Shown: positions 5,337-29,673 of the stretch, one piece after another
Layout of the letters: each line of letters starts with the position of its first letter
How positions within the stretch are numbered: position 1 is the stretch's first letter
Origin: an uncultured archaeon
GTDB taxonomy: Archaea; Iainarchaeota; Iainarchaeia; Iainarchaeales; DATDZZ01
Direction: 5' to 3'
DNA length: 32,000 bases
Assembly (NCBI GenBank): GCA_964373795.1
Contig: CAYJVY010000004.1
Span: 79,944-111,943, forward strand
Translations under genes and position numbers: made by a program
Notes under the pieces: model-generated
Database searches by the model: none
Told to the model about the DNA's origin: nothing
Seen by the model: the letters and a program-made list of their open reading frames with translations, nothing else

Positions 5337-6191
5337 TTGTTTTTAGTTGACTCAATTCATCATTATATAAATAACTTTAAAGCTGTTGCAGCTTTCCTAA
5401 TTTTACTTATCTTTGTATTCATTTTCATTCAATTTCCTAATGCTTTTCTTTCAAGCGGAAATGTTTTCCTTGAATATGGCAATAATCAAACGCCTTTAAT
5501 TATATTAGCCGTGGAATTTATTTCACTTTTATTGTTTGTTTTATTTTACAGCATTTTTGTAACAATAATTGTTTTTGGAGTAAGAAAAGAATTAAGCCAT
5601 GTAAGACTATGGTATTACTTGCAGGAAATGATTCACAAGTTTTCCTTCAAAATATTTGTTTTATATTTAGCTTTCTTTTTAATTTCATTAATTCTTTCCC
5701 TTGCATTAATTTCAAGCAATTTAATTCCTTTCACTCAAGCAATCCTTTTATCAAATATGTTAATGTTAGTGCTTTCATTGCTTTTATTGTTTGTTCCGCA
5801 AGCAATTGTAGTTGACGAAGAAAACTTAGTTCACTCAATTAAAAACAATTTTGATTTCATTGTAAAAAATCCTCTTCAAACAATTCTAGTAATCGTTTTA
5901 TCAATTATCTTAGTTGGAGTAATTCCATTCATTGAAATGTTTTTTGATTCATTTCAATTCAGTGGAAGATTTGTATCACTTGTATTAATGCTATTATTTG
6001 TAATTCCATTCATTGAAATAGTTAAAACTCATTTCTATATGCTTAGAATTGAATTAGTTAAATCATCTCATCATGCAAGAAAAATGCATTCAAATTATTC
6101 AAAAGAATTTGAACAAGCTTTAAGAGAAAAAGAAGAAAAAATGAAAGACGTTAAACCAATGATTAAAAACAGAGGAAAAGAAGAAAATTAA
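5337..6191 (+). CDS. integral membrane protein, unknown function
   Basis: TTG start lies 7 nt after GGGAGG. It has about 6-7 hydrophobic spans and a charged C-terminal tail. Confidence 0.6.
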   Translation: MFLVDSIHHYINNFKAVAAFLILLIFVFIFIQFPNAFLSSGNVFLEYGNNQTPLIILAVEFISLLLFVLFYSIFVTIIVFGVRKELSHVRLWYYLQEMIHKFSFKIFVLYLAFFLISLILSLALISSNLIPFTQAILLSNMLMLVLSLLLLFVPQAIVVDEENLVHSIKNNFDFIVKNPLQTILVIVLSIILVGVIPFIEMFFDSFQFSGRFVSLVLMLLFVIPFIEIVKTHFYMLRIELVKSSHHARKMHSNYSKEFEQALREKEEKMKDVKPMIKNRGKEEN

Positions 6192-7828
6192 ATAAATTCT
6201 ACTTGTTTTGCATTCTTTTTAATTAATTGACTTAAATGATCTTTATTTCTGGTTTTTAAACTAAACAAGTATTTTCCAACTCCTGTTTTACTTAAATCAA
6301 TAAAATGATTTGAGCGAAGAGAAAACTTTAAAGACAAATTAAGTTCTGTTTTATTAAATTCATTAAATCTCTTTAAACCTCTTGAATCAGTAAAATTAAT
6401 TAAAAAAGTATTTGAATCAACTTGTTTTGAAACATAATTCAATATTTTGGAAGTAAAAGAAAGCACCTCTTCATTAATGTATTGGGAAGACAAAAACTCT
6501 TTAACAGAGCCAATCAATTGATGAATAGCTATAAAAGAACAAAATTTATTCAAATTAATTCCATTTTCTTGGAAAAAAGTTTTCCTCTCCAATAAAGCGT
6601 TCTTCAATTCAATTAATTCTTTAATTGATTTAATAAGCAAATCCAGTTTTTCAAACAAAACAACTTCATTCCCATTTGAATTGAAAACAAGTTTAGGCAT
6701 ATTCAAACCAATTAATGAATTCACTCCTTGAAAGTCTTCAATGAAAAGCTCTTCACTTAATCCTTGAATATTTGAATTACTGCAATTCAATAAAACTAGG
6801 TTTGAATTCAAATGCTTTTGATTTAAGAGTTTCACTTGAAACTCATTTTCAAGTCTATAGTTTAACAAAAAATTTCTATCAGATTTTTTAAATTCCTGAA
6901 TCAATTCATTTACAAACCCAAATCCTAAACCCTTAGATGAATTAAATTCCTCCAATTCTTCTCCTAAAAATAAATCCAAATTCAAAACAGGTTTTTGCTC
7001 TGAACCAAAATAAAAAGCGTCCAAAGAATTAATAATTAAATTTGCTTTTTCCTCGTTATGTTTTTTATTCAAAAAAGGAGAGGCAAACAAATTCAATCCA
7101 GTAATTGAAGGCTTGATTGAAAAAAATCTTTCAAAAAAAGTTAAATCCTTTAACAAGGATGAATACATTGAAGCAAAAGACTTTGATTTTTTAGGCGAAA
7201 TAAAAGAAGTTAAAGGCTTTAAAGAAAAATCCTCTAAAAAAGAAATAAAAATATCTGAATTAAAATGCAAATCACTTAAATTTTTTGGAATAACTTTAAA
7301 CAAATTATATTCTACAAGCAAGTCGTTTCCAGAAAAAGGGTTTTTATTTAATTGTTTTTCAACTTCATATAAAGGCATTCCAACCCTTGTGTACTGCCAA
7401 TGAATATCTTCTCTTCCATACTGCAATAATTTCACGTCAACTAATTCCCTAATTAAAGCAGTGTTCAAATAACTTATTTTCAAATCCTTTATTTGCTCTT
7501 CAACCTCTGAACCAATTTTTTCAGCTAAAGTCCTAGGAATAGATGTTTCCTTTAACAAAGAATCAACAATGTTTCCCCTATCAAAGGATTCAATTTCATG
7601 CTTTGATGTGTGCACCTGCAATCTATTAAAGCTTGCATAAGTTTCAGCAGCTTTTGGATTAAGGTCTTTTAAAACTAAAACAACTTTTTTTCTTAAACGA
7701 ATCAAATCATTTAAGTCATCTGAATTCAAAGACTTAATTACTTTTAAAATATCCCATTCATTTGCTCCTGCTTCCTCACATTCTAAAGCAATTTTTTCAA
7801 CCAAGGAATTAATTGGTTTTCTATCCAT
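6188..7828 (-). CDS. ATP-cone domain protein with an unassigned, possibly degenerate NrdD-like 400-aa body
   Basis: Residues ~70-150 (VHTSKHEIESFDRGNIVDSLLKE...LIRELVDVKLLQYG) fit the ATP-cone pattern and are preceded by a partial cone. The rest has no Gly-radical or Zn-ribbon motif. Confidence 0.7.
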   Translation of the reverse strand: MDRKPINSLVEKIALECEEAGANEWDILKVIKSLNSDDLNDLIRLRKKVVLVLKDLNPKAAETYASFNRLQVHTSKHEIESFDRGNIVDSLLKETSIPRTLAEKIGSEVEEQIKDLKISYLNTALIRELVDVKLLQYGREDIHWQYTRVGMPLYEVEKQLNKNPFSGNDLLVEYNLFKVIPKNLSDLHFNSDIFISFLEDFSLKPLTSFISPKKSKSFASMYSSLLKDLTFFERFFSIKPSITGLNLFASPFLNKKHNEEKANLIINSLDAFYFGSEQKPVLNLDLFLGEELEEFNSSKGLGFGFVNELIQEFKKSDRNFLLNYRLENEFQVKLLNQKHLNSNLVLLNCSNSNIQGLSEELFIEDFQGVNSLIGLNMPKLVFNSNGNEVVLFEKLDLLIKSIKELIELKNALLERKTFFQENGINLNKFCSFIAIHQLIGSVKEFLSSQYINEEVLSFTSKILNYVSKQVDSNTFLINFTDSRGLKRFNEFNKTELNLSLKFSLRSNHFIDLSKTGVGKYLFSLKTRNKDHLSQLIKKNAKQVEFI

Positions 7829-8499: not shown

Positions 8500-10593
8500 A
8501 TGGATTTAATTATTTCTGAAAAAAATATTGCTGGAAAAAGAATTGCTGAAATCTTAGCTGGAAAAAAAATTGAAACAGAAATTGAAGGAAAATCAAATTC
8601 ATACAAATTCTCTAAAGAAGGAAAAGAATTCCTTGTAATTCCATTAAAAGGACATATTTTGGATGTGGATTTCCCAAAACAATTCAAGCAATGGCTTGGA
8701 ACCGATTTAAGAAAACTAATTAAATCAGAAATAGAATTCATTGAAACAGAGCCTTCAATAGTTTCTCTATTGAAAAAAAAAGCAAAAGACGCTCAAACAG
8801 TAATAATTGCAACAGATGCAGACAGAGAAGGAGAAGCAATTGGGGTAGAAGCCCTTCAAATAATTAAAAAAGTTAATTCAAAAATAAAAATTAAAAGAGC
8901 TTATTTTTCTGCAATTACTCCAAAAGACATTTCAAAAGCATTCAATAATTTAACTGAAGTTGACTACAACTTTGCTGACTCAGCTAATACTCGAAGAGAA
9001 ATTGATTTAATTTGGGGAGTGGTTCTAACTCGCTTTTTGTCATTAATTTCAGGAAGACTAGGAAAAGAATTTATTTCAGCTGGAAGAGTTCAAATGCCTA
9101 CTCTAGCACTAATAGTAAGCAGGGAAAAAGAACGCTTAGCTTTTGAAATAAAAAAATACTGGGTTTTAGAAGCATTATTTGAAAAAAACAAAAAAGAATT
9201 CACAGCAGAACACAAAGAAGGAAGGTTTTGGGAAAAAGAAAAAGCCGAACAAATTTTAAAGAAAAAAACAAACAAAGGAATTGTAAAAAAAGTTTCTTCA
9301 AGCAAAAAAGTTCTAAAAAAACCCTTGCCATTCAATACAACAGGATTTTTAAGATCTGCTTCAGCTCTAGGATTCAGTGCAGGAGAAGCAATGAATATAG
9401 CTGAATCACTTTACATGTCAGGATACACTAGTTATCCTAGAACAGATAACACTGTTTACCCTCAAAACCTGGATTTAAAAGAAATACTAAATGCATTAAT
9501 CTCTGTTCCAGAATTTATTGACGTAATTGAAAAAATTTTTTCATTAGGAGAATTAAATCCTTCAAAAGGAACTGAAACAAAAGATCATCCACCAATTCAC
9601 CCAGTTGCAAGTGCTTTAAAAGAAAAACTTTCATCAAAGGAATGGAAAATATATGAATTAATTTGCAGAAGATTTTTCGCTTCACTAGGAGAAGACGCTG
9701 AAACACTAAATCAATCAATTGAAATAGAATTAAACAAAGAACCATTTATTGCAAATGGACAAGTATTACTAAAAGCAGGGTGGAAAGAATTCTATCCATA
9801 CTCAGTTGTAAAAGAAGTAATTTTACCTGAATTAAAAAAAGGAGAAGAAGTTAACTTAAAAGATTTAAAAATGGAGGAAAAAGAAACCCAACCTCCAAAC
9901 AGGTATTCTCAAGGAAAATTAATTCAATTAATGGAAGAGTTAGGAATTGGAACTAAATCAACTAGGCACGAAATCTTAAACAAATTATATGCAAGAAAAT
10001 ACATTTCAGGATTAAAATCAATCGAACCAAACAAAATTGCTTTTGCAGTAATTGATTCATTAGAAAAACATAAAGCTCAAATAAATGAAGCAAAATTAAC
10101 TGCTGAATTAGAAAAAGAAATGGATAAAATTGCTGCAGCAAAAAAATCAAAAGAAGAAGTAGTAAACAATTCAAGAGAAATATTGGAAAAAATAATGGAA
10201 CAATTATTGAAAGAAAAAAACGAAATTGGCTCTGAATTAAGACAAGCAATTCGCGAGGACTCAATTCTAGTTGAATGCAATAAATGCAAAAAAGGAAATC
10301 TAAGAATAATGCATGGAAGAACAGGAAAAAGATTTGTTGGATGCACAAACTATCCTAAATGCAGCAATTCATTTCCTCTACCTCAAAATGGAAGAATAAT
10401 TCCGTTAAACAAAATTTGTGATCAATGCCAAAACATAATGATTAAAGTAATAAACAAACGCCCATACAACATGTGCATAACCCTTAATTGCCCTTCAAAA
10501 GCTGATTGGGGAAAGAAAAAAGAAACCAAAACAGAAGAAGAAAAAACTGAAATTGCAAAAGAAGAAACAGTGAAAGAAAAAATTGTTAAGTAA
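8500..10593 (+). CDS. topA: DNA topoisomerase, type IA
   Basis: It has a Toprim segment (IIATDADREGEAIG) and the active-site Tyr context GYTSYPRTDN. C-terminal zinc ribbons read CNKCKKG...CTNYPKC and CDQC...C. Confidence 0.95.
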   Translation: MDLIISEKNIAGKRIAEILAGKKIETEIEGKSNSYKFSKEGKEFLVIPLKGHILDVDFPKQFKQWLGTDLRKLIKSEIEFIETEPSIVSLLKKKAKDAQTVIIATDADREGEAIGVEALQIIKKVNSKIKIKRAYFSAITPKDISKAFNNLTEVDYNFADSANTRREIDLIWGVVLTRFLSLISGRLGKEFISAGRVQMPTLALIVSREKERLAFEIKKYWVLEALFEKNKKEFTAEHKEGRFWEKEKAEQILKKKTNKGIVKKVSSSKKVLKKPLPFNTTGFLRSASALGFSAGEAMNIAESLYMSGYTSYPRTDNTVYPQNLDLKEILNALISVPEFIDVIEKIFSLGELNPSKGTETKDHPPIHPVASALKEKLSSKEWKIYELICRRFFASLGEDAETLNQSIEIELNKEPFIANGQVLLKAGWKEFYPYSVVKEVILPELKKGEEVNLKDLKMEEKETQPPNRYSQGKLIQLMEELGIGTKSTRHEILNKLYARKYISGLKSIEPNKIAFAVIDSLEKHKAQINEAKLTAELEKEMDKIAAAKKSKEEVVNNSREILEKIMEQLLKEKNEIGSELRQAIREDSILVECNKCKKGNLRIMHGRTGKRFVGCTNYPKCSNSFPLPQNGRIIPLNKICDQCQNIMIKVINKRPYNMCITLNCPSKADWGKKKETKTEEEKTEIAKEETVKEKIVK

Positions 10594-11404
10594 ACTTTTG
10601 AATTTGTTTCCTTGTTTTTGCTTTTTTCCACATACTAAAAAAATAGTTTCTAAATGAATCTGCAATTTCTTGACTTTGAATAAGAAAAGCGTATGGTTTT
10701 TCCTTCCAAACAGTCATCAAAACTTTATCTTTATACATGTTTGCAATTGAAGGCGTATGCAACTCTCTTTGAATATATCTTACTTCTGTGAGTTTTTCCT
10801 CTTCCCTATCCTTTCCTACAGAATCTCTCAAATTCTCATGTATAAGAATTTGGAGTTTGACTTTTTTTGCAGCTCTTCTAAGCTGAAAACCGCGAATAAA
10901 CTTTCTAAATTTTTCAGGAGTTTCAGGAAGTTGTGTTACTCCAAGTGCTTGATATGTTTCGCCAGATTTCAGGCGTTCATAAAAATCATCAAATGCTGTT
11001 TTCATTCCTTTCCAGCCTTCAAAAACAGTTGCAGAATGCAATTCTTTCTCTCTATGCATTGATAAAAGTTTAGGAATTAATTCTTTTACTTCTTCTTTTT
11101 GTTTTTCAATATTTTTTGATTTTTGATTTAAGAAATCAAGTAACCTATTAGGATTAGAAGCTTCAAAAATTTTTATTTTCTGTTTAATAAAATAACTAAC
11201 CAAACCTTTTGAAATTAAGGAATTCAAACAAAAATATACAGTTGTTTTCTGCAAATTTATATCGGAAACAATTTGTCCAACTTTTGACGCTCCTAATTTA
11301 TGTAATGAAAGGTAAACTTTTATTTCTCCTTCAGTTAAACCAATGTCTTGTAAAACAGGTTTCATATAGTGAAAAAGAACCAAAAACAATTTATTTATAT
11401 ACAT
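10586..11404 (-). CDS. TrmB family transcriptional regulator
   Basis: LQDIGLTEGEIKVYLSLHKLGASKVGQIVSDINLQKTTVYFCLNSLISKGLV is the TrmB N-terminal wHTH. The alternative start is Met14 at 11365. A palindromic TATA at 11434..11441 fits a near-leaderless start at 11404. Confidence 0.8.
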   Translation of the reverse strand: MYINKLFLVLFHYMKPVLQDIGLTEGEIKVYLSLHKLGASKVGQIVSDINLQKTTVYFCLNSLISKGLVSYFIKQKIKIFEASNPNRLLDFLNQKSKNIEKQKEEVKELIPKLLSMHREKELHSATVFEGWKGMKTAFDDFYERLKSGETYQALGVTQLPETPEKFRKFIRGFQLRRAAKKVKLQILIHENLRDSVGKDREEEKLTEVRYIQRELHTPSIANMYKDKVLMTVWKEKPYAFLIQSQEIADSFRNYFFSMWKKAKTRKQIQKFT

Positions 11405-11461: not shown

Positions 11462-11809
11462 ATGCTGAACATAATTTCTGCAATTATTTCATTTGATTTA
11501 GGATTAATACTAAAAATAATATTTGCAAACAGTTACTGGTTTTTTGCATTTATTTTATTTTTTTATTACAGATTTGAAAACAGAAAAATGATTGAATTTA
11601 TTTTTTCTTTTGCATTAATTTTTGGAATGTTTTTTGTATTTGATTTACTTAAAATAAATTTTATTGGAAAAACATTTCCTTTTGAAACCATTGGCGTTAT
11701 TGCCACTGCTTTGCCAATTTTTCTCCAAAAAACAAGGTTTGAAAAAAGTAGTGGAAAAATCGTTCTAAGCTTAATAGTTTTTTTAAGCATTTTTTTCAGT
11801 TGGTTTTAA
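11462..11809 (+). CDS. small integral membrane protein
   Basis: It has four hydrophobic spans and is divergent from the TrmB gene across a 57-nt spacer. Confidence 0.5.
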   Translation: MLNIISAIISFDLGLILKIIFANSYWFFAFILFFYYRFENRKMIEFIFSFALIFGMFFVFDLLKINFIGKTFPFETIGVIATALPIFLQKTRFEKSSGKIVLSLIVFLSIFFSWF

Positions 11810-11848: not shown

Positions 11849-12526
11849 ATGTGGATTGCAAAACTCAAAATCACTCATCAAGGTTCATTAACAATTCCTT
11901 ATGCAAAAAAGCACAACATTACTATTCTTGCTTATCCAATGAATCATTATTTCGAAGGAAACACAGGATACTTGACAACTGGACACTTTGTTTTAGGCAG
12001 AGAAGAAGACAGAATAAATTATTTCAATGATGTAATAAAAAACAAACGAGTACTTGACTATGAAATGTCTGGAAACCTATTAATTTACACTTTTTCTCAT
12101 CCAAGAACAGAAACACATTTACAGGCATGGTTTTCGCCTCAAATAATGTTTTTGAAACCTGCTGCAGTAAAACCTGACGGATTTCAATACTACGAACTAG
12201 CTTCTTGGAAGAAAGAAAACCTTGCAGACTTAATAAAGAAATTAAAAAAACACGCAAGTGTTGAAATACTCTCATTAAAGAATGAACCAATTACAGATAT
12301 TTTTACTCCACACTTAATGCCTCCACTAAGCAAGAAACAAAAGGAAACAATTATGCTTGCCTACGAGTATGGCTACTATAATTATCCTAAAGGAATCAAC
12401 ATAAGAAAATTAGCAAAAAAAATTGGGTTAAGCGAGTCAACACTGCAAGAGCATTTGCGTTTGGCTGAAGGAAAATTAATGCCTTTCCTGCTTGAAAATA
12501 TTGTACACAAAAAACCCGAAACATAG
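11849..12526 (+). CDS. HTH_10 (bacterio-opsin activator type) DNA-binding protein
   Basis: The C-terminus LSKKQKETIMLAYEYGYYNYPKGINIRKLAKKIGLSESTLQEHLRLAEGKLM matches the Bat-type HTH pattern. Confidence 0.75.
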   Translation: MWIAKLKITHQGSLTIPYAKKHNITILAYPMNHYFEGNTGYLTTGHFVLGREEDRINYFNDVIKNKRVLDYEMSGNLLIYTFSHPRTETHLQAWFSPQIMFLKPAAVKPDGFQYYELASWKKENLADLIKKLKKHASVEILSLKNEPITDIFTPHLMPPLSKKQKETIMLAYEYGYYNYPKGINIRKLAKKIGLSESTLQEHLRLAEGKLMPFLLENIVHKKPET

Positions 12527-12589
12527 TGGGAAAATTAACTTTAACCAGTTAAAGCATTAATTACATACGGATTTTGTGGAGAACTTGTT

Positions 12590-14071
12590 ATGGAAACAAA
12601 GTGGTTATTTGTAGAGGAAATTCCAAATTCACACCCATTTGTTTTGGAGGGCGTGTGGAGATTTATTTCAACAAAATTTGAAAAAGAATACTCTGGAAAA
12701 ATTTCTACTGCTCTGGCTTTTGAGAAAGGAACCTCGTACCTTTACATTAATTCTGCTGATTGGAAAAGAGCAGGGAAAAGCGTATTTGCAAAAGTTGTTT
12801 CGGATCCTAATTGGATGCTGGAGAAAAACAAAACTAATGAAGAAATACAAACAAGGCTGTACACTTTATATTCAGAAATTGGGAAAAAGCCAGTATCAAA
12901 ACTTTCAACTTCTGAGCTTCTTGATTTGTTGCAGAACTGGTTAGACGAATATGAATTAGGAATCTCTATCGGCTGGATTGACATGGCAATGGAATTCCCA
13001 CACGAATTACTGTCAAACTATCTAAAAGATTATTTGAAGAAAAAAATTCATGAACAAAAATTAAGATATCATGAGTCAGAATTATTTACTGTTTTTTCAA
13101 CTCCTGTTAGAGAAACTTGGGCAAAAAGAGAAGAAAAAAGTTTACTAAAGATTTGTTTGGAAATAAAGAATAAATATGATTCAGTTGACTTGAATACTCT
13201 TAAGTCTTTGGAAGAGCATTTTCAAAAATTCAAATGGTTGTCCTACATGTACGTTGGCCCGGCACAGGAAAAATCATATTACATTGACTTAATACATGAA
13301 CTTTTTTCGGAGAATTTGGATTTTGAAGGTAAATTAAAAAGATTGGAAAACGAAGGTAAAGAGTTTGAAAAGAAAAAGCATAAATACTTGAATGAACTGC
13401 AGGCTGATGAAACGCATAAAAAATTGTTGCAAATAGCTGAAAACCTTGTCTGGTTAAAGGATTATAGAAAAAACCAAATTTTGTTCAGTTTTTATTCAGT
13501 TGAAAAATTGTTAAAAGAAATATCAAAGAGATTTGGTTTATCCCTAAACCAGTTAAGGTTTGTCACACCTTTTGAAGCTAAAAAATATTTACAATCAAAC
13601 TTTTCTCCTGAAGAATTGAACACTAGATACAATGCATGTGTTTATTTGTTTGACAAAGGAACAAACAGCTTTTATGTTGGAGAAGAAGCTAAAAAATTCC
13701 ATGAATCAATTAAGCCTAAAGAAACTTTTGACCTTAGTGTAACTGTGTTGCGTGGAAGTACTGCTGTTCCTGGCAAGGTAAAAGGCAGGATAAAATTAGT
13801 TATTCTGCCAAAAGATATGCCTAAGATGAATCAAGGCGATATTTTGGTTGCACATGCAACAAATCCCGACGTAGTTCCTGCAATGAAAAAAGCTGCGGCA
13901 ATAATTGCTGATGTGGGTGGATTGACATGTCATGCTGCAATTGTTTCAAGAGAAATGGGAACTCCATGCATTGTAGGAACAAAATATGCAACAAAACTAC
14001 TCAAAGACAACGACTTAGTAGAAGTGGATGCAACTAACGGAGTTATAAGAATTCTGAAAAAAGCAAAATAG
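12590..14071 (+). CDS. PEP-utilising enzyme mobile (swivel phosphohistidine) domain protein with an unassigned 380-aa N-terminal region
   Basis: The C-terminus is GDILVAHATNPDVVPAMKKAAAIIADVGGLTCHAAIVSREMGTPCIVG. No ATP-grasp or PEP/pyruvate barrel motif was seen. Confidence 0.8.
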   Translation: METKWLFVEEIPNSHPFVLEGVWRFISTKFEKEYSGKISTALAFEKGTSYLYINSADWKRAGKSVFAKVVSDPNWMLEKNKTNEEIQTRLYTLYSEIGKKPVSKLSTSELLDLLQNWLDEYELGISIGWIDMAMEFPHELLSNYLKDYLKKKIHEQKLRYHESELFTVFSTPVRETWAKREEKSLLKICLEIKNKYDSVDLNTLKSLEEHFQKFKWLSYMYVGPAQEKSYYIDLIHELFSENLDFEGKLKRLENEGKEFEKKKHKYLNELQADETHKKLLQIAENLVWLKDYRKNQILFSFYSVEKLLKEISKRFGLSLNQLRFVTPFEAKKYLQSNFSPEELNTRYNACVYLFDKGTNSFYVGEEAKKFHESIKPKETFDLSVTVLRGSTAVPGKVKGRIKLVILPKDMPKMNQGDILVAHATNPDVVPAMKKAAAIIADVGGLTCHAAIVSREMGTPCIVGTKYATKLLKDNDLVEVDATNGVIRILKKAK

Positions 14072-14079
14072 TGTAGTGT

Positions 14080-14964
14080 CTAACTCTTTAATGCCTGGTG
14101 CCTACTTTTGAAATTTTGAAGAATTTGCTCTTTGAAGTTTTTTGCTACTTCTGGATTTTTGAAGTAAATGAATCTAATGTTTCCTTTTGTGTTAAGCAAT
14201 TTGTTTAATTCAGAGCTTTTTATTTCATCTATTGATTTATATTTTTTGATTAATTCTTTTATTTTGTTAAAAATATTTTTTGGATAATATACTTGGACAA
14301 TATTGTAACCAAGAACGTTTACATCTATTCCTTCTTGGAAAATAGGTTCTTTTGCTGTAATTGTTTTTGTTCCCATAAAAGTGTTATTTTTTGCCGCGAA
14401 TTCATTAATCAGGTTTTTTCCAGCATAAACAATCCAAGACTTGACGCCTTTCTTGTTATAATACTCCCATAAACTTGTTTCATTTCCTAAATTAATCATC
14501 CACCACCACCCAAAATTTAAGCCTCCAAGAACTTCCTTTGGTTCTCCTGACGCAAGATTATCAACCCACTGAAGCATTATGTCAGACCAAAAATTGTCTA
14601 ACTCAAACAAGCTGCTTAACTTGTATTCTGCATAATCCTGTTCTTTGAATAATTTGTTAAAAACTTTTGAATGAACTTTGCTATAATATGTTTCAGACAG
14701 TTTGTCAAAAAATTTCTTTGAATCAAAAATCCATTTTTTTGAAATCTCATATTCTTTGCTTTGGTTTTTTGACAAAACCCCTGCATCAAGTAAAAGATTT
14801 GCAGCTTTTCTTGTTGCCTGAAATGAAACACTTGTTTTGAATTCCTTTCCAAGTTTTCTATGCAATTTCATCAGGCTCAAAGGATGCTCTTTTGATAGAA
14901 CCTGTATTATCTGAATTTTTACAAGTTCTTTTCCTTTTTGTGCAGTCAAAAAATCCAATGCCAT
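14080..14964 (-). CDS. hypothetical protein with N-terminal winged-helix-like region
   Basis: The N-terminal ~80 aa (IQIIQVLSKEHPLSLMKLHRKLGKEFKTSVSFQATRKAANLLLDAGVL) look like a wHTH. The Trp-rich C-terminal domain (GGLNFGWWWMINLG) is unassigned. Confidence 0.5.
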   Translation of the reverse strand: MALDFLTAQKGKELVKIQIIQVLSKEHPLSLMKLHRKLGKEFKTSVSFQATRKAANLLLDAGVLSKNQSKEYEISKKWIFDSKKFFDKLSETYYSKVHSKVFNKLFKEQDYAEYKLSSLFELDNFWSDIMLQWVDNLASGEPKEVLGGLNFGWWWMINLGNETSLWEYYNKKGVKSWIVYAGKNLINEFAAKNNTFMGTKTITAKEPIFQEGIDVNVLGYNIVQVYYPKNIFNKIKELIKKYKSIDEIKSSELNKLLNTKGNIRFIYFKNPEVAKNFKEQILQNFKSRHQALKS

Positions 14965-15073
14965 AAAATGCTTTCACGTCACCTTGTTATTAAATCTTTC
15001 TGTAATAGTGAACCTTTTGGTTCACTGATAACTTAACTCAAATTATTTAACCTTGCATGAGGTCAATTTGTTT

Positions 15074-15409
15074 ATGAACAAAAAATTCCCAATAACTGAT
15101 TCCTTAGCAAATGGCGAATTCTTCGATGTAAGAATTCCGTCAAAGCATTTGAATTATGAGTCAAGATTGGATGTAATTTTTTCTTTTGTTAAAGATAAAT
15201 TGGAGGAACAAAAATATTTGTCTAAAACACTTTTGAACATTGTTGCAGGATTATTTATTGTATTAATGATCTTGATTTTCAACAACATGTTTGTTGTTTT
15301 TCTTTTTCCCCTGAGTTGGTTTGCGTTAAAGAATTATGCAAAATATGCTGAGAAAAGATTTAGAGATAACAGATATTATGCAAAAAGAGTGGTTGTAGTT
15401 GAAAGTTGA
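15074..15409 (+). CDS. small membrane protein
   Basis: ATG lies 10 nt after TGAGGT. It has one or two hydrophobic spans (LLNIVAGLFIVLMILIFNNMFVVFLFPLSWF). The tracked ORF starts at an upstream TTG, 15053. Confidence 0.45.
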   Translation: MNKKFPITDSLANGEFFDVRIPSKHLNYESRLDVIFSFVKDKLEEQKYLSKTLLNIVAGLFIVLMILIFNNMFVVFLFPLSWFALKNYAKYAEKRFRDNRYYAKRVVVVES

Positions 15410-15425
15410 AATTTAAGGTGATTAA

Positions 15426-16877
15426 ATGACTGATTGGATTATTTTTGCTCGCTGGAATGCACTGCCTTTAGATAATTCAGAATTTGCAGATAAGTATTAT
15501 CAAAACGAATTTAAAAAAATTATTGGCACCAGTTTTACTTGCTTTGATGCAATAGTGGATGGTGCATCCAATAGATATAATCCTAAAGCTGAAGCAAATG
15601 AACTTTTTTCAATTTCTTTATCCAAACTAGAAGAAGAAAACTTTTTTGAATCTCATTTAGAAAGGTACGAATTATCTGCACAAAATATAAGGGACTTCTT
15701 GAAAGAATCTAGTTTAATTGATTTCCCAAAATTATCTTTTACTGAGCTATATGATTTGTTTAAAGAATCTGTCAAATTGAATTCTGTTGTTAATGCTTAC
15801 ACTAATGTGTTTTATTTTATTGGAATGTGTTTTGGAAAAGAACTTAAAAACTACTTATCTGAAGAGCTTAAGGATGAGAAAAAAGCTAATGAGTATTTTA
15901 TTGCCCTACAAAAACCAATTAAAGATACTATTTTAACTAAGGAGAAAAATGCCTTGAAAAAAATTCTTGAAAAAGCTTTATTTGGTAATCCTGAATTACA
16001 AAATAAGGAAAGCTCGTATGATTTTCTTTTTTCTTTGCCAAATATTCAGCAAGACTTGGAAAAACATAGAGAAGAATTTTCTTGGATTCCTACACTGACT
16101 GGTGCGCCTCCATGGACTAAAAGAGATTTTGTTAATGAAATGATTGAATTACTCAAAACACCTAAAAAAGCAGAACATGAAACTATTGAAATAGATTTAG
16201 AATTGCCTGAAAAAATTAAAAAAATAATTAATTTCTTGAAAATTGCGGCATACATTAAAGATGATGTAGAGGCTCTTTATTCTTATAAAAACTTTACTTT
16301 TAGAAGGAAATTCTTAGAGGAATTAAGTAAAAGATTTTTTATTGATATTAATTCTTTAAGGTTATTCACACAAGATGAATTGCTGTCTTTATTAAAGGAG
16401 CAAAAAATTGATGAAAGTATTTTGAATTTAAGGAAAAAGTTTTGGACATTATATGCTGATGGCAGCTCACTACATATCATTACAGGAAAAGCAGCTCTTA
16501 TTCTAAAGAATTCCATAATAAAGGAAGAAGAAATCGATTTTTCCATTAGTGAACTAAAAGGTTTAACTGGTTCAGTGGGAAAAATAAGTGGAAGAGTAAA
16601 AATTTTAATGAGGGTTGAAGATCTAGATATAGTTCAAAAAGGAGATGTGTTGGTTTCCTTAAATACAATGGTTGACTTTGTTCCTGCAATGAAAAGAGCC
16701 AGTGCAATAATAACTGAAATTGGCGGAATTACTTCTCATGCTGCAATAGTTTCACGTGAATTTGGAATTCCATGCATTACAGATGTAAAAAATGCTACAA
16801 AGATTTTGAAAAATAATGATTTGATAGAGGTTGACGCAAACAACGGAGTTATAAGAATTTTAAAAAAAGCAAAATAA
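15426..16877 (+). CDS. PEP-utilising enzyme mobile domain protein, paralog of 12590..14071
   Basis: RBS is AAGGTGA. The C-terminus is GDVLVSLNTMVDFVPAMKRASAIITEIGGITSHAAIVSREFGIPCITD, and similarity to the paralog runs the full length. Confidence 0.8.
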   Translation: MTDWIIFARWNALPLDNSEFADKYYQNEFKKIIGTSFTCFDAIVDGASNRYNPKAEANELFSISLSKLEEENFFESHLERYELSAQNIRDFLKESSLIDFPKLSFTELYDLFKESVKLNSVVNAYTNVFYFIGMCFGKELKNYLSEELKDEKKANEYFIALQKPIKDTILTKEKNALKKILEKALFGNPELQNKESSYDFLFSLPNIQQDLEKHREEFSWIPTLTGAPPWTKRDFVNEMIELLKTPKKAEHETIEIDLELPEKIKKIINFLKIAAYIKDDVEALYSYKNFTFRRKFLEELSKRFFIDINSLRLFTQDELLSLLKEQKIDESILNLRKKFWTLYADGSSLHIITGKAALILKNSIIKEEEIDFSISELKGLTGSVGKISGRVKILMRVEDLDIVQKGDVLVSLNTMVDFVPAMKRASAIITEIGGITSHAAIVSREFGIPCITDVKNATKILKNNDLIEVDANNGVIRILKKAK

Positions 16878-16897
16878 TTAAGAAAAATTTCTTTTGC

Positions 16898-16928
16898 AAA
16901 CTTTTCTTTTCAAAAGAAAAGTTTTTTT
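16898..16928 (+). terminator. hairpin plus oligo-T terminator-like element
   Basis: AAACTTTTCTTTT-C-AAAAGAAAAGTTT has perfect 13-nt arms followed by a T run, 21 nt after the stop of 15426..16877. Confidence 0.4.
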
Positions 16929-16933
16929 AGAAT

Positions 16934-16982
16934 GGATAGGACGAAAAAAAATTAGTTCAAGCTAGAGCTTGTGAGCCTATCC
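16934..16982. other. GC-enriched nested hairpin of unknown role
   Basis: GGATAGG (16934-40) pairs with CCTATCC (16976-82). The pair encloses the palindrome CAAGCTAGAGCTTG (16958-71). Confidence 0.25.
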
Positions 16983-17164
16983 CATCCACCCTAAAAATCT
17001 TACACGAATTTACTTATAACATAACTCTATAATATTACCATATTTATATATTAAGTAATTTTAAGTATGATATTAAAGATATTCAAAATATTTAAAGTGT
17101 AAAAATCACAACATCAAAAAACTCTTTAATAACGATTTAAAACTGCTTGAAAATTTCATAAGAA

Positions 17165-17268
17165 CTGCAGGGGCACAAAAAAAACCAGTTACGCTTGGTG
17201 GGCTTGCCCCTGGTCTTATTCTTCGGATTGATTTAATTTATTCACTTTGAAGTTATCCCTCCGAGTTG
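17165..17268. ncRNA. candidate small structured RNA (class unknown)
   Basis: CAGGGGCA (17168-75) pairs with TGCCCCTG (17205-12) around an inner CCAG/TTGG hairpin. A second TTCGGA/TCCGAG pairing lies at 17222-27 and 17260-65. 17 of 25 nt are G/C in 17191-17215, within an AT-rich 515-bp spacer. Confidence 0.2.
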
Positions 17269-17395
17269 TTAAACTACAATTATATAGTGTTCCAAGTTTT
17301 TAAGTATTAAGTAAATTTAGGCATTTAAAAATTACATTTAAATAATTTTCTATGTAACATTTAATACATTTAAACTCTGTTTTAAAGGTGTTTTT

Positions 17396-17936: not shown

Positions 17937-18743
17937 TTACTCAATTGATTCTAAGAATTTGTTTGCAATTTCTTTTACTTGTTCAGTTGACTTGATTCCC
18001 TTCCAAGAATCTTGTGGAGAGACAACGTTTACTACTACAATGTTTGCTCCATTGAATACAGCTGATTGAGCTTCCCTTAAATACAGTCCTCCTGCAATTG
18101 AAATCAATGAATTAAATTTGCTTCTAATTCTTTTAATGTGCTTGAATTCAATTATTTTTCCAAAAGTGGATTCTTCATCTCTTCCTTTATGAAGAATCAC
18201 TACATCAGGATTTTCCCTTAATTTTCTTAAAGCCTTTAAAGGATCTAAAACATTAATCATGTCAACCATTGAATAAATCCTTAATTCCTTACATGTTTTT
18301 ACAAACAAGGAAATGGTTTCAGGCGGAGCAGCTCCTAAAACAGTTGCAGCATTTGCTCCTGCTTCAAAAACCTCTCGAACTTCTTGCACTGCTCCATCCA
18401 TTGTCTTAATATCTGCAACAAGAAATCCTTGCCACAAATTTTTTAATCTCTTAATTCCTTGAATTCCTTCTCGTTTAATGAAAGGAGTTCCAGCTTCAAT
18501 CAAAATTCTATTGCTTCGAGGCAATTGAGAAATAACTCGTTCCGCTGTACGCAAATCACTATTAAAAGCAATCTGCAAAAAACGAGTTTTATTATTTAAT
18601 TCAGTTAAACCTTGATCAGAAGTTGATTCAAATTCATTTTCAGGCAATGATTCTTCTTGAATTGATTCGCTTTGCTCGTTTGCAGTTTCGTTTTCTGTTT
18701 CAAAATCAATTACGAATTCTCCTTCTTCAAATTTTAACTTCAA
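17937..18743 (-). CDS. hps: 3-hexulose-6-phosphate synthase-like (OMPDC suprafamily) with acidic N-terminal extension
   Basis: LQIAFNS, IEAGTPFIKREG, VADIKTMDG, GANAATVLGAA, VDMINV, HKGRD and IAGG are collinear with the HxlA/KGPDC motifs. Confidence 0.75.
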   Translation of the reverse strand: MKLKFEEGEFVIDFETENETANEQSESIQEESLPENEFESTSDQGLTELNNKTRFLQIAFNSDLRTAERVISQLPRSNRILIEAGTPFIKREGIQGIKRLKNLWQGFLVADIKTMDGAVQEVREVFEAGANAATVLGAAPPETISLFVKTCKELRIYSMVDMINVLDPLKALRKLRENPDVVILHKGRDEESTFGKIIEFKHIKRIRSKFNSLISIAGGLYLREAQSAVFNGANIVVVNVVSPQDSWKGIKSTEQVKEIANKFLESIE

Positions 18744-27459: not shown

Positions 27460-27630
27460 TTGGATGAAAAAGCCCAAGTATCAATTGAATTAATTGTTGT
27501 ACTAGCAGCAGTTGTTGCAATTGTTTTACTTTTAGTAGGACAATTACAGGAAACAAGCAAGGAAGGAGTGAAAGAATTTGATGAAACAACTAGTGAAGTT
27601 TTTAAGGAAATCAAAAAAATCAATTCATAG
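27460..27630 (+). CDS. class III signal peptide (archaeal type IV pilin-like) small protein
   Basis: TTG lies 6-7 nt after AGGAGG. The sequence DEKAQVSIELIVVLAAVVAIVLLLVG has a charged leader, Q, then a hydrophobic helix. The tracked ORF's GC-rich 34-codon extension was rejected. Confidence 0.65.
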   Translation: MDEKAQVSIELIVVLAAVVAIVLLLVGQLQETSKEGVKEFDETTSEVFKEIKKINS

Positions 27631-28042
27631 AGGACAAATAAGTTTAGAATACTTATTGATTTTGGTTTCCTTTTTTTCTTTTTTTATTTTATTCTTTCCA
27701 TTAATGTTAAAAATATTTGAAGAAGGAAATCAAGCAATTGAGTTGCAAAACGCAAAAATGTTCTTAAAAGAATTGAAAAACAAGATAACAGAAGTCTCGC
27801 TATATGAAAATAATTCAAAACAAGTAATTGAAGTAAATTCAAATAATGAATGGCTAGTCAAAATTGAAAACAAAAGCATTTCACTTGAAATTCAGAAAAA
27901 AATAAATAATAAAATTGAAAAAATAACTTTAAAAGAAGAAATAAGTCAAAACTTGAACAAAATAGAATTAATTCTAAAAGACAAAAGTATGCTTGAAATA
28001 AAAAATTCTAAAGAAAAAATTGAAGTTAAAAAAATTAATTAA
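27578..28042 (+). CDS. class III signal peptide pilin-like protein
   Basis: KKSIHRGQISLEYLLILVSFFSFFILFF is the R-G-Q / SLEYLL prepilin-type motif. It overlaps the previous gene by 53 nt. Confidence 0.7.
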   Translation: MMKQLVKFLRKSKKSIHRGQISLEYLLILVSFFSFFILFFPLMLKIFEEGNQAIELQNAKMFLKELKNKITEVSLYENNSKQVIEVNSNNEWLVKIENKSISLEIQKKINNKIEKITLKEEISQNLNKIELILKDKSMLEIKNSKEKIEVKKIN

Positions 28043-28400
28043 AGAAAACAGTTAACTCAATTACATAAAACTGCCCTTCAGAAAAAATATTTGCAGTAGA
28101 AGTAATTGAATTTTTTTCATCATTAAAAGCGTTCCACAAAATCGAATTATTTAACACAATTTTCCCATTATTTTGTGGGAAAACAAATTTAAAATCTTCA
28201 ATTAATTCATTTGCATTAAATGTTTTAGAATAACTCCAAACCTTTAACAAGTCATGTTGTTTTTGCAATAAATAAATTGAGTTAAAAGAAACGTTTATTG
28301 GAGTTGAAATTAATAAAAGAAAATTAATTAAAATAGTTAAAGAAAGCAAGGCTTCAAAAGAATAAATAAAGGCTTTTTTATTCACAAAAAACCACTCCAA
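28035..28400 (-). CDS. pilin-like protein (N-terminal hydrophobic helix)
   Basis: NKKAFIYSFEALLSLTILINFLLLI resembles a class III signal peptide. It is last in a four-gene minus-strand run. Confidence 0.5.
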   Translation of the reverse strand: MEWFFVNKKAFIYSFEALLSLTILINFLLLISTPINVSFNSIYLLQKQHDLLKVWSYSKTFNANELIEDFKFVFPQNNGKIVLNNSILWNAFNDEKNSITSTANIFSEGQFYVIELTVFFN

Positions 28401-28806
28401 GTAAAGCCTTTTTTAAAATCTCTTCTTTAACTAAAACAAATCTTTGAATTGAAAAACATTTTTCAGTTAAAGGAAGTTGTCGAATGAAATGTGTTTCCCC
28501 ATTCTTAAATTTAATAAAAACCTCTTTAACGTTTTCAGGAAACTGCTTGTCATCAATTAAGTGAAAATCAATTATATTTGAAAGAACTCTATGTTTTTTG
28601 TCATCAAAAACTGAAAGGCCTTGTGAATTAGACTTAATTGATTTTTTCACTAAACCGTCTGCAAAGGTTAAAGCTTTTCTCTCTAAAGAAACGCTTTCAA
28701 CAAGTTGTTTTTTGTTCTCAATTGAATTACTTAGAAATAAAAAAAATAAGTAAAAAATTAAAAGAATTAAAATGAATGAAAAAACCAAGTCAGTGAAAAA
28801 AATCAT
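28378..28806 (-). CDS. pilin-like or membrane-anchored hypothetical protein
   Basis: The N-terminus is MIFFTDLVFSFILILLIFYLFFLFL. It overlaps the next gene by 23 nt. Confidence 0.45.
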   Translation of the reverse strand: MIFFTDLVFSFILILLIFYLFFLFLSNSIENKKQLVESVSLERKALTFADGLVKKSIKSNSQGLSVFDDKKHRVLSNIIDFHLIDDKQFPENVKEVFIKFKNGETHFIRQLPLTEKCFSIQRFVLVKEEILKKALLGVVFCE

Positions 28807-28810
28807 TCCT

Positions 28811-29125
28811 TTAATTGTAATGGTTGTTCACCTTTATTTCATTATTTTTAAATCCAATTATTTCTTTATTGATTAACTGTAAAGAAATGTTTTCATCAAA
28901 AAAACCTTCACTGTTATAACAATTAAACTCTGAAGTAATTTTCCCAGAAAAAACATTGTTATAAAAATAGTCAACTACAAATGCACATTGCTCTAAAAAA
29001 ATGTTTTCCTTAAAAGTGTTTAAAGAGTTATTAAAATCATTTAATGCATTTGATTCAAATCTAATAAAAGCACTCAAAAGCAAAAAAGAAACAATTAAAG
29101 AAATAATAAATTCAAGAAAATTCAT
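28811..29125 (-). CDS. pilin-like hypothetical protein
   Basis: The N-terminus MNFLEFIISLIVSFLLLSAFI has an acidic residue early in the hydrophobic helix. Confidence 0.45.
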   Translation of the reverse strand: MNFLEFIISLIVSFLLLSAFIRFESNALNDFNNSLNTFKENIFLEQCAFVVDYFYNNVFSGKITSEFNCYNSEGFFDENISLQLINKEIIGFKNNEIKVNNHYN

Positions 29126-29136
29126 TTTTTTTCCTC

Positions 29137-29673
29137 TTAATTTTTAACCTCTAAAGAATAATTTAATGGAATTAAAAAAATTTGATTTGAATTTGGAAAA
29201 TTTATTTTTGCGAATAAAATCTTTTTTTCATTAAAAGGAAAAGTCAATTCATTTTTTTTATTAAAGGAATCGGGTTTTACTTTAAACAAGGATTTTAAAG
29301 AATTAATGGAGGGTTTTTCACTCTGAGCATTGAATAGATTTGAATAATTAATTGAATTCTGCGAAGCCAAAAGAAAAGTTGTTTGTTTATTTTTTTGTTC
29401 AATTAAATTAAGAAAATTAAATAACTCATTAGATAAATCTTTTTTTATTTCACCTGAATTAAAGTTCCCGATCTTTAATTTTTTAAGTAAAAAAAATTCA
29501 AAAAAAGAATCAAGATTTTGCTCTAACTCTGTTCTCAAGTAATTGGCTTTCTCTATTTCAATAATAATGTTCTTGGATTCATTTAATTTGTTAAAAGTTA
29601 AATTCATGTCTTGTAAAGAGATCAGAAAAGGAAGCAAGAACAAAACCAAAAGAAAAGAAAAAAACCCTTTCAT
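29137..29673 (-). CDS. pilin-like hypothetical protein
   Basis: The N-terminus MKGFFSFLLVLFLLPFLISL has K-G followed by a hydrophobic helix. It is first in the minus-strand run. Confidence 0.5.
   Translation of the reverse strand: MKGFFSFLLVLFLLPFLISLQDMNLTFNKLNESKNIIIEIEKANYLRTELEQNLDSFFEFFLLKKLKIGNFNSGEIKKDLSNELFNFLNLIEQKNKQTTFLLASQNSINYSNLFNAQSEKPSINSLKSLFKVKPDSFNKKNELTFPFNEKKILFAKINFPNSNQIFLIPLNYSLEVKN

Follow-up and report, generated by a model that had tools for sequence, protein, structure and literature searches.

What might a protein phosphorylate when it carries the phosphohistidine swivel domain of phosphoenolpyruvate (PEP)-utilizing enzymes and neither of the catalytic domains that those enzymes also need? 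This question is raised by two genes in a 32,000-nucleotide stretch of contig CAYJVY010000004.1 (assembly GCA_964373795.1) from an uncultured archaeon, hereafter the window. An original prediction, made by a model from the sequence and a list of its open reading frames (ORFs), had described them as divergent paralogues and suggested a regulated small-molecule phosphotransferase resembling rifampin phosphotransferase (RPH) and lacking its ATP-grasp. This idea is supported by the fold of one paralogue, by a family profile and by the conserved company of an HTH_10 regulator and a small membrane protein. We consider it moderately probable that the two proteins, termed A and B below, belong to a split, RPH-like dikinase that uses ATP to phosphorylate small molecules, as the ‘H-type’ subunits that bind the substrate and carry the phosphate, while the ATP-grasp partner acts in trans from elsewhere in the genome.

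Two collinear paralogues with a C-terminal swivel domain

Both ORFs lie on the plus strand exactly where they had been predicted. Paralogue A (493 aa; 12590..14071) combines a substrate-binding region with the phosphohistidine swivel and represents the canonical subunit, as assigned by Pfam, AlphaFold 2 (AF2), Foldseek and a family hidden Markov model (HMM), while paralogue B (483 aa; 15426..16877) is a divergent subunit by Pfam, BLASTP and motif comparison. The peptides and C-terminal motifs quoted in the original prediction were found in A and B. In BLASTP, residues 104–493 of A aligned to 102–483 of B with 34% identity over 406 aa (E = 7e-58), and the HMM of the family's N-terminal domain (N-domain) matched both proteins from its position 1 (E = 4e-135 for A), so the two are collinear paralogues, over their full length as had been proposed.

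The sole Pfam domain in either protein is PEP-utilizers (PF00391) at the extreme C terminus, spanning residues 414–484 of A (E = 2.8e-26, 91.3 bits) and 404–474 of B (E = 4.1e-24, 84.4 bits; cut-off, 23.1 bits). Pfam detected no PPDK_N ATP-grasp (PF01326) and no PEP-utilizers_C barrel (PF02896) in A or B. The predicted mobile domain with its catalytic His is thus present, and the ATP-grasp and PEP barrel that had been noted as missing are indeed not seen, either by Pfam or in the helical N terminus of the A model. Within the swivel domain of A (13748..14068), the catalytic His448 sits in the sequence GGLTCH and is encoded by a CAT codon at 13931–13933; in B, His438 sits in GGITSH, with CAT at 16737–16739, which are the codons that had been singled out for mutation. 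The surrounding loop, G-G-x-T-[CS]-H-A-A-I-V-S-R-E, reads GGLTCHAAIVSRE in A and GGITSHAAIVSRE in B. Among the 108 family members on which our column counts and profile rest, the catalytic His is invariant (108/108) and a Thr occupies the position two residues before it in 103.

Over their last 203 nt (13868–14070 and 16674–16876), the two genes share 76% DNA identity, and the C-terminal tail NGVIRILKKAK is identical in both proteins. Concerted evolution of swivel domains within a genome, as for a shared docking partner, was considered and rejected: identity within loci (57.0%) barely differs from that between loci (55.3%), and the resemblance of the 3′ ends reflects general conservation.

The N-terminal region is an RPH-type substrate-binding domain

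When searched alone against the sequences in the PDB, the N-terminal region retrieved only spurious matches to repeat proteins; its homology to RPH surfaced solely with the 108-sequence profile or by fold search. The profile aligned to residues 514–866 of RPH from Listeria (RPH-Lm) with an E-value of 2e-29, at an identity between A or B and RPH of 16–18%. The RPH-type NCBIfam model PRK06241.1-4 covered residues 247–489 of A and 238–479 of B (model positions 636–868), and the RPH equivalog model matched B from 263 to 479 (positions 653–864), well past the swivel domain. An AF2 model of A, built with the 108 family members, reached a pLDDT of 96 and a pTM of 0.93 and is helical nearly throughout to residue ~350. 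Foldseek comparison of this model to the PDB returned the RPH-Lm structures 5fbu, 5hv1, 5fbt and 5fbs as the sole whole-protein matches (5fbu and 5hv1: E ~1e-13, TM-score of 0.58 normalised to the query, ~580 columns), whereas pyruvate kinase, PPDK and enzyme I matched in the swivel only. Together, the reach of the NCBIfam models, the fold match of A and the family profile establish that the N-terminal region of A and B is an RPH-type substrate-binding domain—neither an ATP-grasp nor a PEP barrel. In A, this helical domain comprises aa 1–386 (12590..13747).

These results modify the original prediction in several respects. The swivel is the single Pfam domain, yet it is not all that the proteins carry, and the ~380-aa N-terminal regions are helical as described but can now be assigned. 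Homology to RPH had been confined to the linker preceding the swivel; it extends far beyond it. The proposed Foldseek check, run on the AF2 model of A, revealed no complete ATP-grasp or PEP barrel.

Like RPH (5FBS, 5FBT, 5FBU and 5HV1), A presents the order of helical substrate-binding domain and C-terminal swivel His, by both Foldseek and profile. RPH is a single chain with a fused N-terminal ATP-grasp, which is absent from A and B, and the curated RPH cut-offs in NCBIfam are far from reached (NF041857, 64–77 bits versus 999; NF000283, 53–57 bits versus 1700). There is no evidence of rifamycins as substrates of A or B.

A putative phosphotransfer motif distinguishes A from B

The most conserved motif of the N-domain in the family, K-x-Y-R-K-D, falls by profile alignment on R666-E667-Y668-P669-K670 of RPH-Lm, the second phosphotransfer site. 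In RPH, R666 and E667 touch the catalytic His as well as the phosphate in transfer, and either R666A or E667A abolishes rifampin phosphorylation (PMC4844700). Paralogue A reads K290-D-Y-R293-K294 here (13457..13471), so that K290, D291 and K294 align with R666, E667 and K670, with R293 in addition. Across the family, K290 is kept in 106 of 108 members, R293 in 105 and K294 in 92, with Arg in another 8. A retains every near-invariant family residue, and its 75%-identical orthologue P0002 keeps all motifs, which suggests purifying selection.

In B, the positions aligned with R666, E667 and K670 hold K278, D279 and a Glu, E282, instead of Lys. The motif K-x-x-R-K is replaced by K278-D-D-V-E282 (16257–16271), and W-x-x-Y-x-Y-x-G-P by WIPTLTGAP (16083–16109); the swivel loop GGITSH and the Glu and Arg of the E-x-x-x-R motif are kept. 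Similarly altered motifs (RTEAE, RNEAE, RVQEE, QRTRED, STLCD and VSLFCD) occur in short paralogues (441–498 aa) of other arrays, namely L012|3900, L016|11535, L009|209, L009|1662, L023_PEP490 and L024_PEP484. Such a paralogue takes the first array position in L023, L024 and L009, and in L023 and L024 it directly follows a small membrane protein of the type (type 2) that also precedes B. B is thus a member of a recurrent divergent class and not a case of isolated degeneration. In a crude neighbour-joining tree, the motif-altered paralogues group loosely, with long branches and 20–24% identity, which is only suggestive of monophyly. With its acceptor site altered, B is likely to act on another acceptor or to play an accessory part, as judged from these sequence motifs.

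Related loci place a stand-alone ATP-grasp beside arrays of paralogues

The window is archaeal by its genes for RFC small subunit, Cdc48, TopA, TrmB and Lrp/AsnC and has a G+C content of ~30%. Candidatus Diapherotrites, a DPANN lineage, is the label both of the nearest named relative of A (75% identity) and of the closest relatives of the window's HTH_10 protein. We analysed 15 independent related loci with local HMMs, ten of which have enough flank for the gene content to be compared; L001, a Logan contig, derives from the same organism as the window. A scan for neighbourhoods with a degenerate DNA pattern yielded three genome loci and two metagenome loci.

All ten of these loci contain an array of one to nine or more paralogues together with one PPDK_N. 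In nine (L002, L006, L007, L009, L012, L016, L021, L023 and L024), PPDK_N is a stand-alone gene (~312–316 aa) beside the array, while L018, the tenth, has it as part of a giant fusion protein upstream. The stand-alone proteins match positions ~5–337 of PEP synthase models and ~4–314 of RPH-type models and therefore constitute a complete ATP-grasp. A neighbourhood survey for precisely such a stand-alone partner had been recommended along with the original prediction, for which the partner was unknown; its family can now be named, yet no member lies in the window. A HAD phosphatase gene adjoins the array in five loci, and those nearest to the window (HTH_10 proteins 51–56% identical) share the order HTH_10, two small membrane proteins, a variable number of paralogues, PPDK_N and HAD. 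The co-occurrence of paralogues and flanking genes is therefore conserved, with HTH_10 and a small membrane protein recurring in many related loci.

A direct comparison was afforded by L021, a metagenome-assembled genome (MAG) of Diapherotrites whose module consists of HTH_10, two small transmembrane proteins, one PEP-utilizers gene, PPDK_N and HAD. Homologues in the window and L021 share 61% identity for TopA, 66% for AsnC, 59% for the 179-aa winged helix-turn-helix protein (wHTH-179), 56% for HTH_10 and 40% for the 284-aa ORF at 5337..6191, and the two regions have a common backbone order: the 257/284-aa gene, ATP-cone, AsnC, TopA, the 175/179-aa gene, NFACT-R, Cdc48 and M50. In L021 the module is inserted between the 257-aa gene and ATP-cone; in the window it lies between TopA and wHTH-179, and A is only 29% identical to the single L021 paralogue. 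Since the backbone is the same and the site differs, the module moves within genomes whose gene order is otherwise shared, and its set of paralogues changes quickly.

Some of these loci held further features. The Micrarchaeota arrays L006 (8795–9814) and L007 (2121–3077) each encode, between two HTH_10 genes, a multi-pass membrane protein of 320–340 aa without a Pfam match; the two are 92% identical to each other and may represent a transporter linked to the system. In L023, the PPDK_N gene (9935–10872) is broken in two, with pieces of 272 and 48 aa, and nearby on the opposite strand there is a 36-aa PEP-utilizers remnant (12214–12324); both point to turnover or decay within the module. The ATP-cone gene of the shared backbone (6188–7828, minus strand, in the window) encodes a 546-aa protein with a weak ATP-cone match and no other assignable domain; its syntenic homologue in L021 (566 aa, 27% identity) adjoins the dikinase module.

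A large family with informative fusions

Searched exhaustively as a profile on its own, the N-domain recovered 4,076 cluster representatives at E <= 1e-3, 630 of them at E <= 1e-30, compared to the six to seven relatives returned by a word-indexed protein search. No Pfam or NCBIfam model covers the N-domain, and full-text literature searches turned up no account of either the arrays or the family in DPANN or candidate phyla radiation (CPR) organisms. Among the best 148 representatives, 103 are stand-alone proteins of ~500 aa with N-domain and swivel, 12 bear a ~90-aa N-terminal extension, several are head-to-tail fusions of two, three or more whole units and one is fused to a HAD hydrolase. 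Four representatives (P0085, P0112, P0117 and P0122) have the RPH layout of PPDK_N, N-domain and swivel; one (P0055) has PPDK_N after the swivel, and one of 2,309 aa (P0007) consists of three units, PPDK_N and one more unit. By Rosetta-stone reasoning, these fusions are evidence for a PPDK_N ATP-grasp as the working partner of the stand-alone proteins.

Head-to-tail repetition of whole units, in two to four copies, was seen in P0007 (2309 aa, with PPDK_N embedded between unit copies), in P0008 and P0010 (~1500 aa) and in six proteins of ~1000 aa. They may be genuine polyproteins or else reflect read-through, due to gene calling or an alternative genetic code. More distant arrays contain fusions to DNA-binding domains: HTH_17/MerR in L018 and HTH_26/XRE in L019. 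The L018 array (1–21662; archaeal MAG GCA_043810775.1) comprises at least nine swivel-bearing genes, three with an N-terminal HTH_17/MerR domain and two in shortened forms of ~350 aa, alongside an isochorismatase, a double-HTH Lrp-like gene and the giant PPDK_N fusion. In L016 (17674–21539), the array adjoins genes for PrgI, TraC-like and TraG P-loop proteins (conjugation- or type-IV-secretion-like) and a bacterial-type MetK, a setting which suggests that the family may extend to bacteria or travel on mobile elements.

The module in the window

Of the module, the window holds HTH_10, A, the small membrane protein gene orf118 and B. The HTH_10-family regulator (11849..12526, plus strand; Pfam HTH_10, E = 8e-19) precedes the pair, as had been predicted. 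In its AF2 model (pLDDT 91), two beta-alpha-beta-beta-alpha-beta (ACT/ferredoxin-like) units in tandem make up the N-terminal ~150 aa, followed by a C-terminal HTH_10. The only compact fold match was 5m86, Ta1207 from Thermoplasma (TM-score of 0.44 normalised to the query), with weak matches to MetN regulatory domains; this modelled N terminus would be compatible with the sensing of a small ligand, for which it is weak evidence. Of the 72 homologues detected for this protein, those with a label all belong to DPANN archaea. Full-length homologues adjoin A-type paralogues in L002, L006 (three copies), L007 (two), L008, L012 (two), L015, L021, L023 and L024; A itself falls into a clade of paralogues that always adjoin an HTH_10 gene. 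In several loci the HTH_10 and A-type reading frames overlap, stop codon on start, and more than one copy of HTH_10 is interspersed among the paralogues.

Between A and B, orf118 (15053..15409, plus strand) encodes a small protein with two predicted transmembrane segments, 16 nt upstream of B. By BLASTP it is the type-2 partner of the small-membrane-protein pair (L012_105, E = 4e-10; L024_s128, 3e-6; L023_s111, 9e-5). Upstream of HTH_10, orf115 (11462..11809, plus strand) encodes a small protein with three transmembrane segments and no Pfam or PHROG match; a weak match to L012_120 (E = 5e-4) makes it a tentative part of the module. The array is interrupted by orf294 (14080..14964, minus strand), a lineage-specific gene for a 294-aa protein that occurs otherwise only in L001, the contig of the same organism, and in none of the other related loci. 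It gave no match in Pfam, NCBIfam, PADLOC, PHROG or PDB sequences and is not a conserved module component. The pair does bracket an opposite-strand gene and a small membrane protein, as originally described; the ‘wHTH-like’ label given to the former found no significant family match, and this gene is not conserved with the system. We also considered orf294 as a divergent ATP-grasp and rejected this, as it has no similarity to PPDK_N, no database match and no copy in related loci.

After B comes an ORF-free gap of 518 nt (16878..17395), the site of PPDK_N and HAD in relatives, without any ORF of at least 25 aa. A PPDK_N or HAD pseudogene, in the gap or elsewhere in the window, was rejected on this ground and by negative tblastn searches. 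The gap contains a very stable minus-strand hairpin (16925–17000; dG −25.4 kcal/mol, z −4.4) and a GC-rich island (17165–17215; 57% GC versus 26% for the gap) with a GGGGCA...UGCCCC stem. Neither has an Rfam match at E <= 1 or conserved sequence in L021, L023 and L024, and Rfam and tRNA scans of the window and of the gap were negative.

A probable split dikinase and competing explanations

How would A and B work without an ATP-grasp of their own? The steps of a dikinase cycle are well established from work on RPH (PMC4844700) and on PpsAB, CreHI and HpeHI, which are two-component enzymes (PMC12167813). From homology, motif conservation, fusions and operon structure, we infer a corresponding cycle, with charging in trans by a distant ATP-grasp and a small molecule as substrate. 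By analogy, a separate PPDK_N protein would bind ATP, and the swivel His (His448 in A, His438 in B) would attack the beta-phosphate and become phosphorylated, leaving AMP and Pi as products. Next, the swivel domain would swing back to its own N-terminal helical domain and pass the phosphate to the bound small molecule—positioned, in the case of A, by the K290/D291/R293/K294 site. In relatives, one ATP-grasp might serve diversified H-type paralogues, each with its own substrate, like a hub and its spokes. In this genome, the module has been relocated and rearranged, and the ATP-grasp would be supplied from elsewhere: with PPDK_N and HAD not in the locus, the partner is most likely encoded in another part of the genome, as we assume for the organism of the window.

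Several findings weigh against the split-dikinase reading. No PPDK_N was detected in the 32-kb window (Pfam on ORFs of at least 100 aa; tblastn with L002 and L021 queries), nor in the ~7 kb past its 3′ end, so that the separate ATP-grasp gene that accompanies a two-component dikinase is lacking over that whole distance. HAD is missing from the window as well (tblastn with three HAD proteins), and the locus has no type-1 small membrane protein. B is devoid of equivalents of R293 and K294 and of the Y-x-Y motif, and the recurrent fusions to DNA-binding domains hint at a regulatory role beyond a purely catalytic one. Moreover, missing parts and an unrelated interrupting gene are also what a decaying locus would look like. 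We regard it as unlikely, though deserving of attention, that the locus is a decaying or repurposed remnant which lost PPDK_N and HAD after its relocation, with A and B either near pseudogenisation or using the swivel His to shuttle phosphate between phosphorylated and unphosphorylated small molecules without any ATP-grasp. PPDK_N and HAD, absent here, are present in every comparable locus including the syntenic L021; orf294 breaks the array, the 518-nt gap is empty, and turnover of the module is visible in the split PPDK_N and the 36-aa swivel remnant of L023. Exchange without an ATP-grasp also has a precedent, as HpeH alone moves phosphate from 4-phosphoacetophenone to acetovanillone (PMC12167813). 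However, neither A nor B is truncated and the His loop is intact in both, A matches the family HMM strongly (E-value above) and with all near-invariant residues in place, the motifs kept in P0002 suggest purifying selection, and a partner could be encoded further along the 112-kb contig or in the remaining genome.

Alternatively, the RPH-like domain might sense a ligand and the phosphohistidine state control transcription through HTH_10 or a fused HTH, in the manner of the phosphorylation-controlled regulators of the PEP-dependent phosphotransferase system (PTS). The tight and repeated pairing of HTH_10 with A-type paralogues, sometimes with overlapping stop and start codons, fits such a signalling device, as do independent fusions to at least three HTH types (HTH_17/MerR in L018, HTH_26/XRE in L019 and the ~90-aa extension in 12 of the 148 representatives). 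Enzymes and regulators are, however, often adjacent or fused where autoregulation responds to the substrate, and no phosphate need pass to the regulator for that; 105–106 of 108 members keep the motif with which RPH hands phosphate to the small molecule it binds, an operon with a HAD phosphatase suits a small phospho-metabolite, and the N-terminal domain of HTH_10 resembles a small-ligand sensor rather than a phospho-acceptor domain. We thus hold a regulatory device to be improbable, a little more so than decay. That A and B are nothing but common genes, whole or fragmentary, for PEP synthase, PPDK or PTS enzyme I is so implausible that we consider it ruled out for PpsA and PPDK by Pfam, NCBIfam scores, the AF2 model and Foldseek. 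While the best sequence matches of the swivel are to PEP synthases (8a8e, E = 6e-28; NF005057) and the Thr two residues before the His is typical of PEP synthase and PPDK, both proteins lack PPDK_N and the PEP-utilizers_C barrel, the NCBIfam equivalogs score 102–125 bits versus cut-offs of 598–740 with the matches confined to ~110 residues, the N-terminal 380 aa of A adopt the RPH helical fold, and the ~500-aa architecture is kept in most of the top representatives (103 of 148).

Returning to the split dikinase, the ratio of one ATP-grasp to many diversified substrate subunits suggests a hub-and-spoke battery acting on different substrates. It is tempting to speculate that HAD and the membrane proteins add a cycle of phosphorylation and dephosphorylation, possibly linked to uptake or trapping. 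A broader proposal, which we put forward tentatively and think rather less probable than not, is that DPANN archaea, and possibly some bacteria, possess a hub-and-spoke dikinase in which one stand-alone ATP-grasp charges two to nine or more rapidly diversifying, substrate-specific subunits under the control of a ligand-sensing HTH_10 protein, along with membrane proteins and HAD, that spokes persist away from their hub and that the B class is accessory or regulatory. If so, the system could be a phosphorylation-based trap for the scavenging or detoxification of diverse host-derived small molecules in organisms of minimal metabolism, and the window would show spoke subunits functioning away from the hub gene, charged in trans or without an ATP-grasp.

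Relation to known dikinases

The architecture and presumed chemistry of A and B match, by analogy, the two-component small-molecule dikinase subfamily. Its members HpeHI, CreHI and PpsAB from bacterial aromatic catabolism have been demonstrated experimentally and, like A and B, combine an RPH-like substrate domain and a C-terminal swivel His in one chain, with the ATP-grasp on a separate protein of ~310–340 aa (PMC12167813); in the window's relatives, too, the two are adjacent genes, whereas the window itself has no ATP-grasp gene. There are clear differences. The H-type subunits here measure ~500 aa versus ~600–650 aa for HpeH, CreH and PpsA, which share ~45% pairwise identity, and their loop has Thr-Cys/Ser-His as in PEP synthase, where HpeH and RPH have Met two residues before the His. 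The ~600-aa PRK08296 models match A and B in the swivel region only. Our family resides in DPANN archaea, possibly also in bacteria, rather than in aromatic degraders, and counts two to nine or more paralogues per ATP-grasp gene instead of a 1:1 ratio; HTH_10, small membrane proteins and HAD keep company with its arrays, and aromatic-catabolism genes are not found nearby. Set apart by size, His loop, PRK08296 reach and context, A and B are unlikely to belong to the characterised HpeH/CreH/PpsA clade.

The prodiginine ligases PigC, HapC and RedH illustrate that an RPH-like scaffold can phosphorylate a substrate for later condensation. They share the RPH-like three-domain organisation, and their swivel region aligns to that of A and B (NF052631, NF052632); but they are single chains with a fused ATP-grasp, the similarity is only C-terminal, and no biosynthetic cluster is present here. 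PpsA and PPDK are the closest sequence relatives of the A/B swivel and of the stand-alone PPDK_N in relatives, and use the same phosphohistidine swivel chemistry. They possess both a PEP/pyruvate TIM-barrel and an ATP-grasp, neither of which A or B has, and place the swivel centrally instead of at the C terminus; the N-domain fold of A and B is unrelated to any domain of PpsA or PPDK.

The assignment matters for annotation, as the N-domain defines thousands of metagenomic clusters now labelled ‘PEP-utilizing enzyme’ or ‘phosphoenolpyruvate synthase’. The latter label would wrongly grant gluconeogenic capacity to genome-reduced archaea, which reading these proteins as parts of a split RPH-like dikinase corrects. 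The two-component class, defined experimentally only in 2025, is here extended from bacterial aromatic catabolism to DPANN archaea, and the presence of many acceptor subunits per ATP-grasp, together with a regulator, membrane proteins and a phosphatase, suggests a versatile battery for small-molecule phosphorylation in symbiotic microbes. The system is experimentally approachable, given soluble proteins of ~500 aa, confident models and defined His and Lys/Arg targets for mutation.

Other features of the window

An anti-phage defence function or mobile-element protein was rejected, as PADLOC and PHROG searches returned no match. A sigma-70 promoter scan was uninformative, the host being an archaeon. 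Five small ORFs (104–178 aa, four on the minus strand) without Pfam or PHROG match occupy positions 27578–29673, the most AT-rich part of the window (23–24% GC). Lastly, downstream of the gap on the minus strand (17937–18743), a protein of the OMP-decarboxylase/HUMPS family carries an acidic N-terminal extension of ~55 aa outside its Pfam match.

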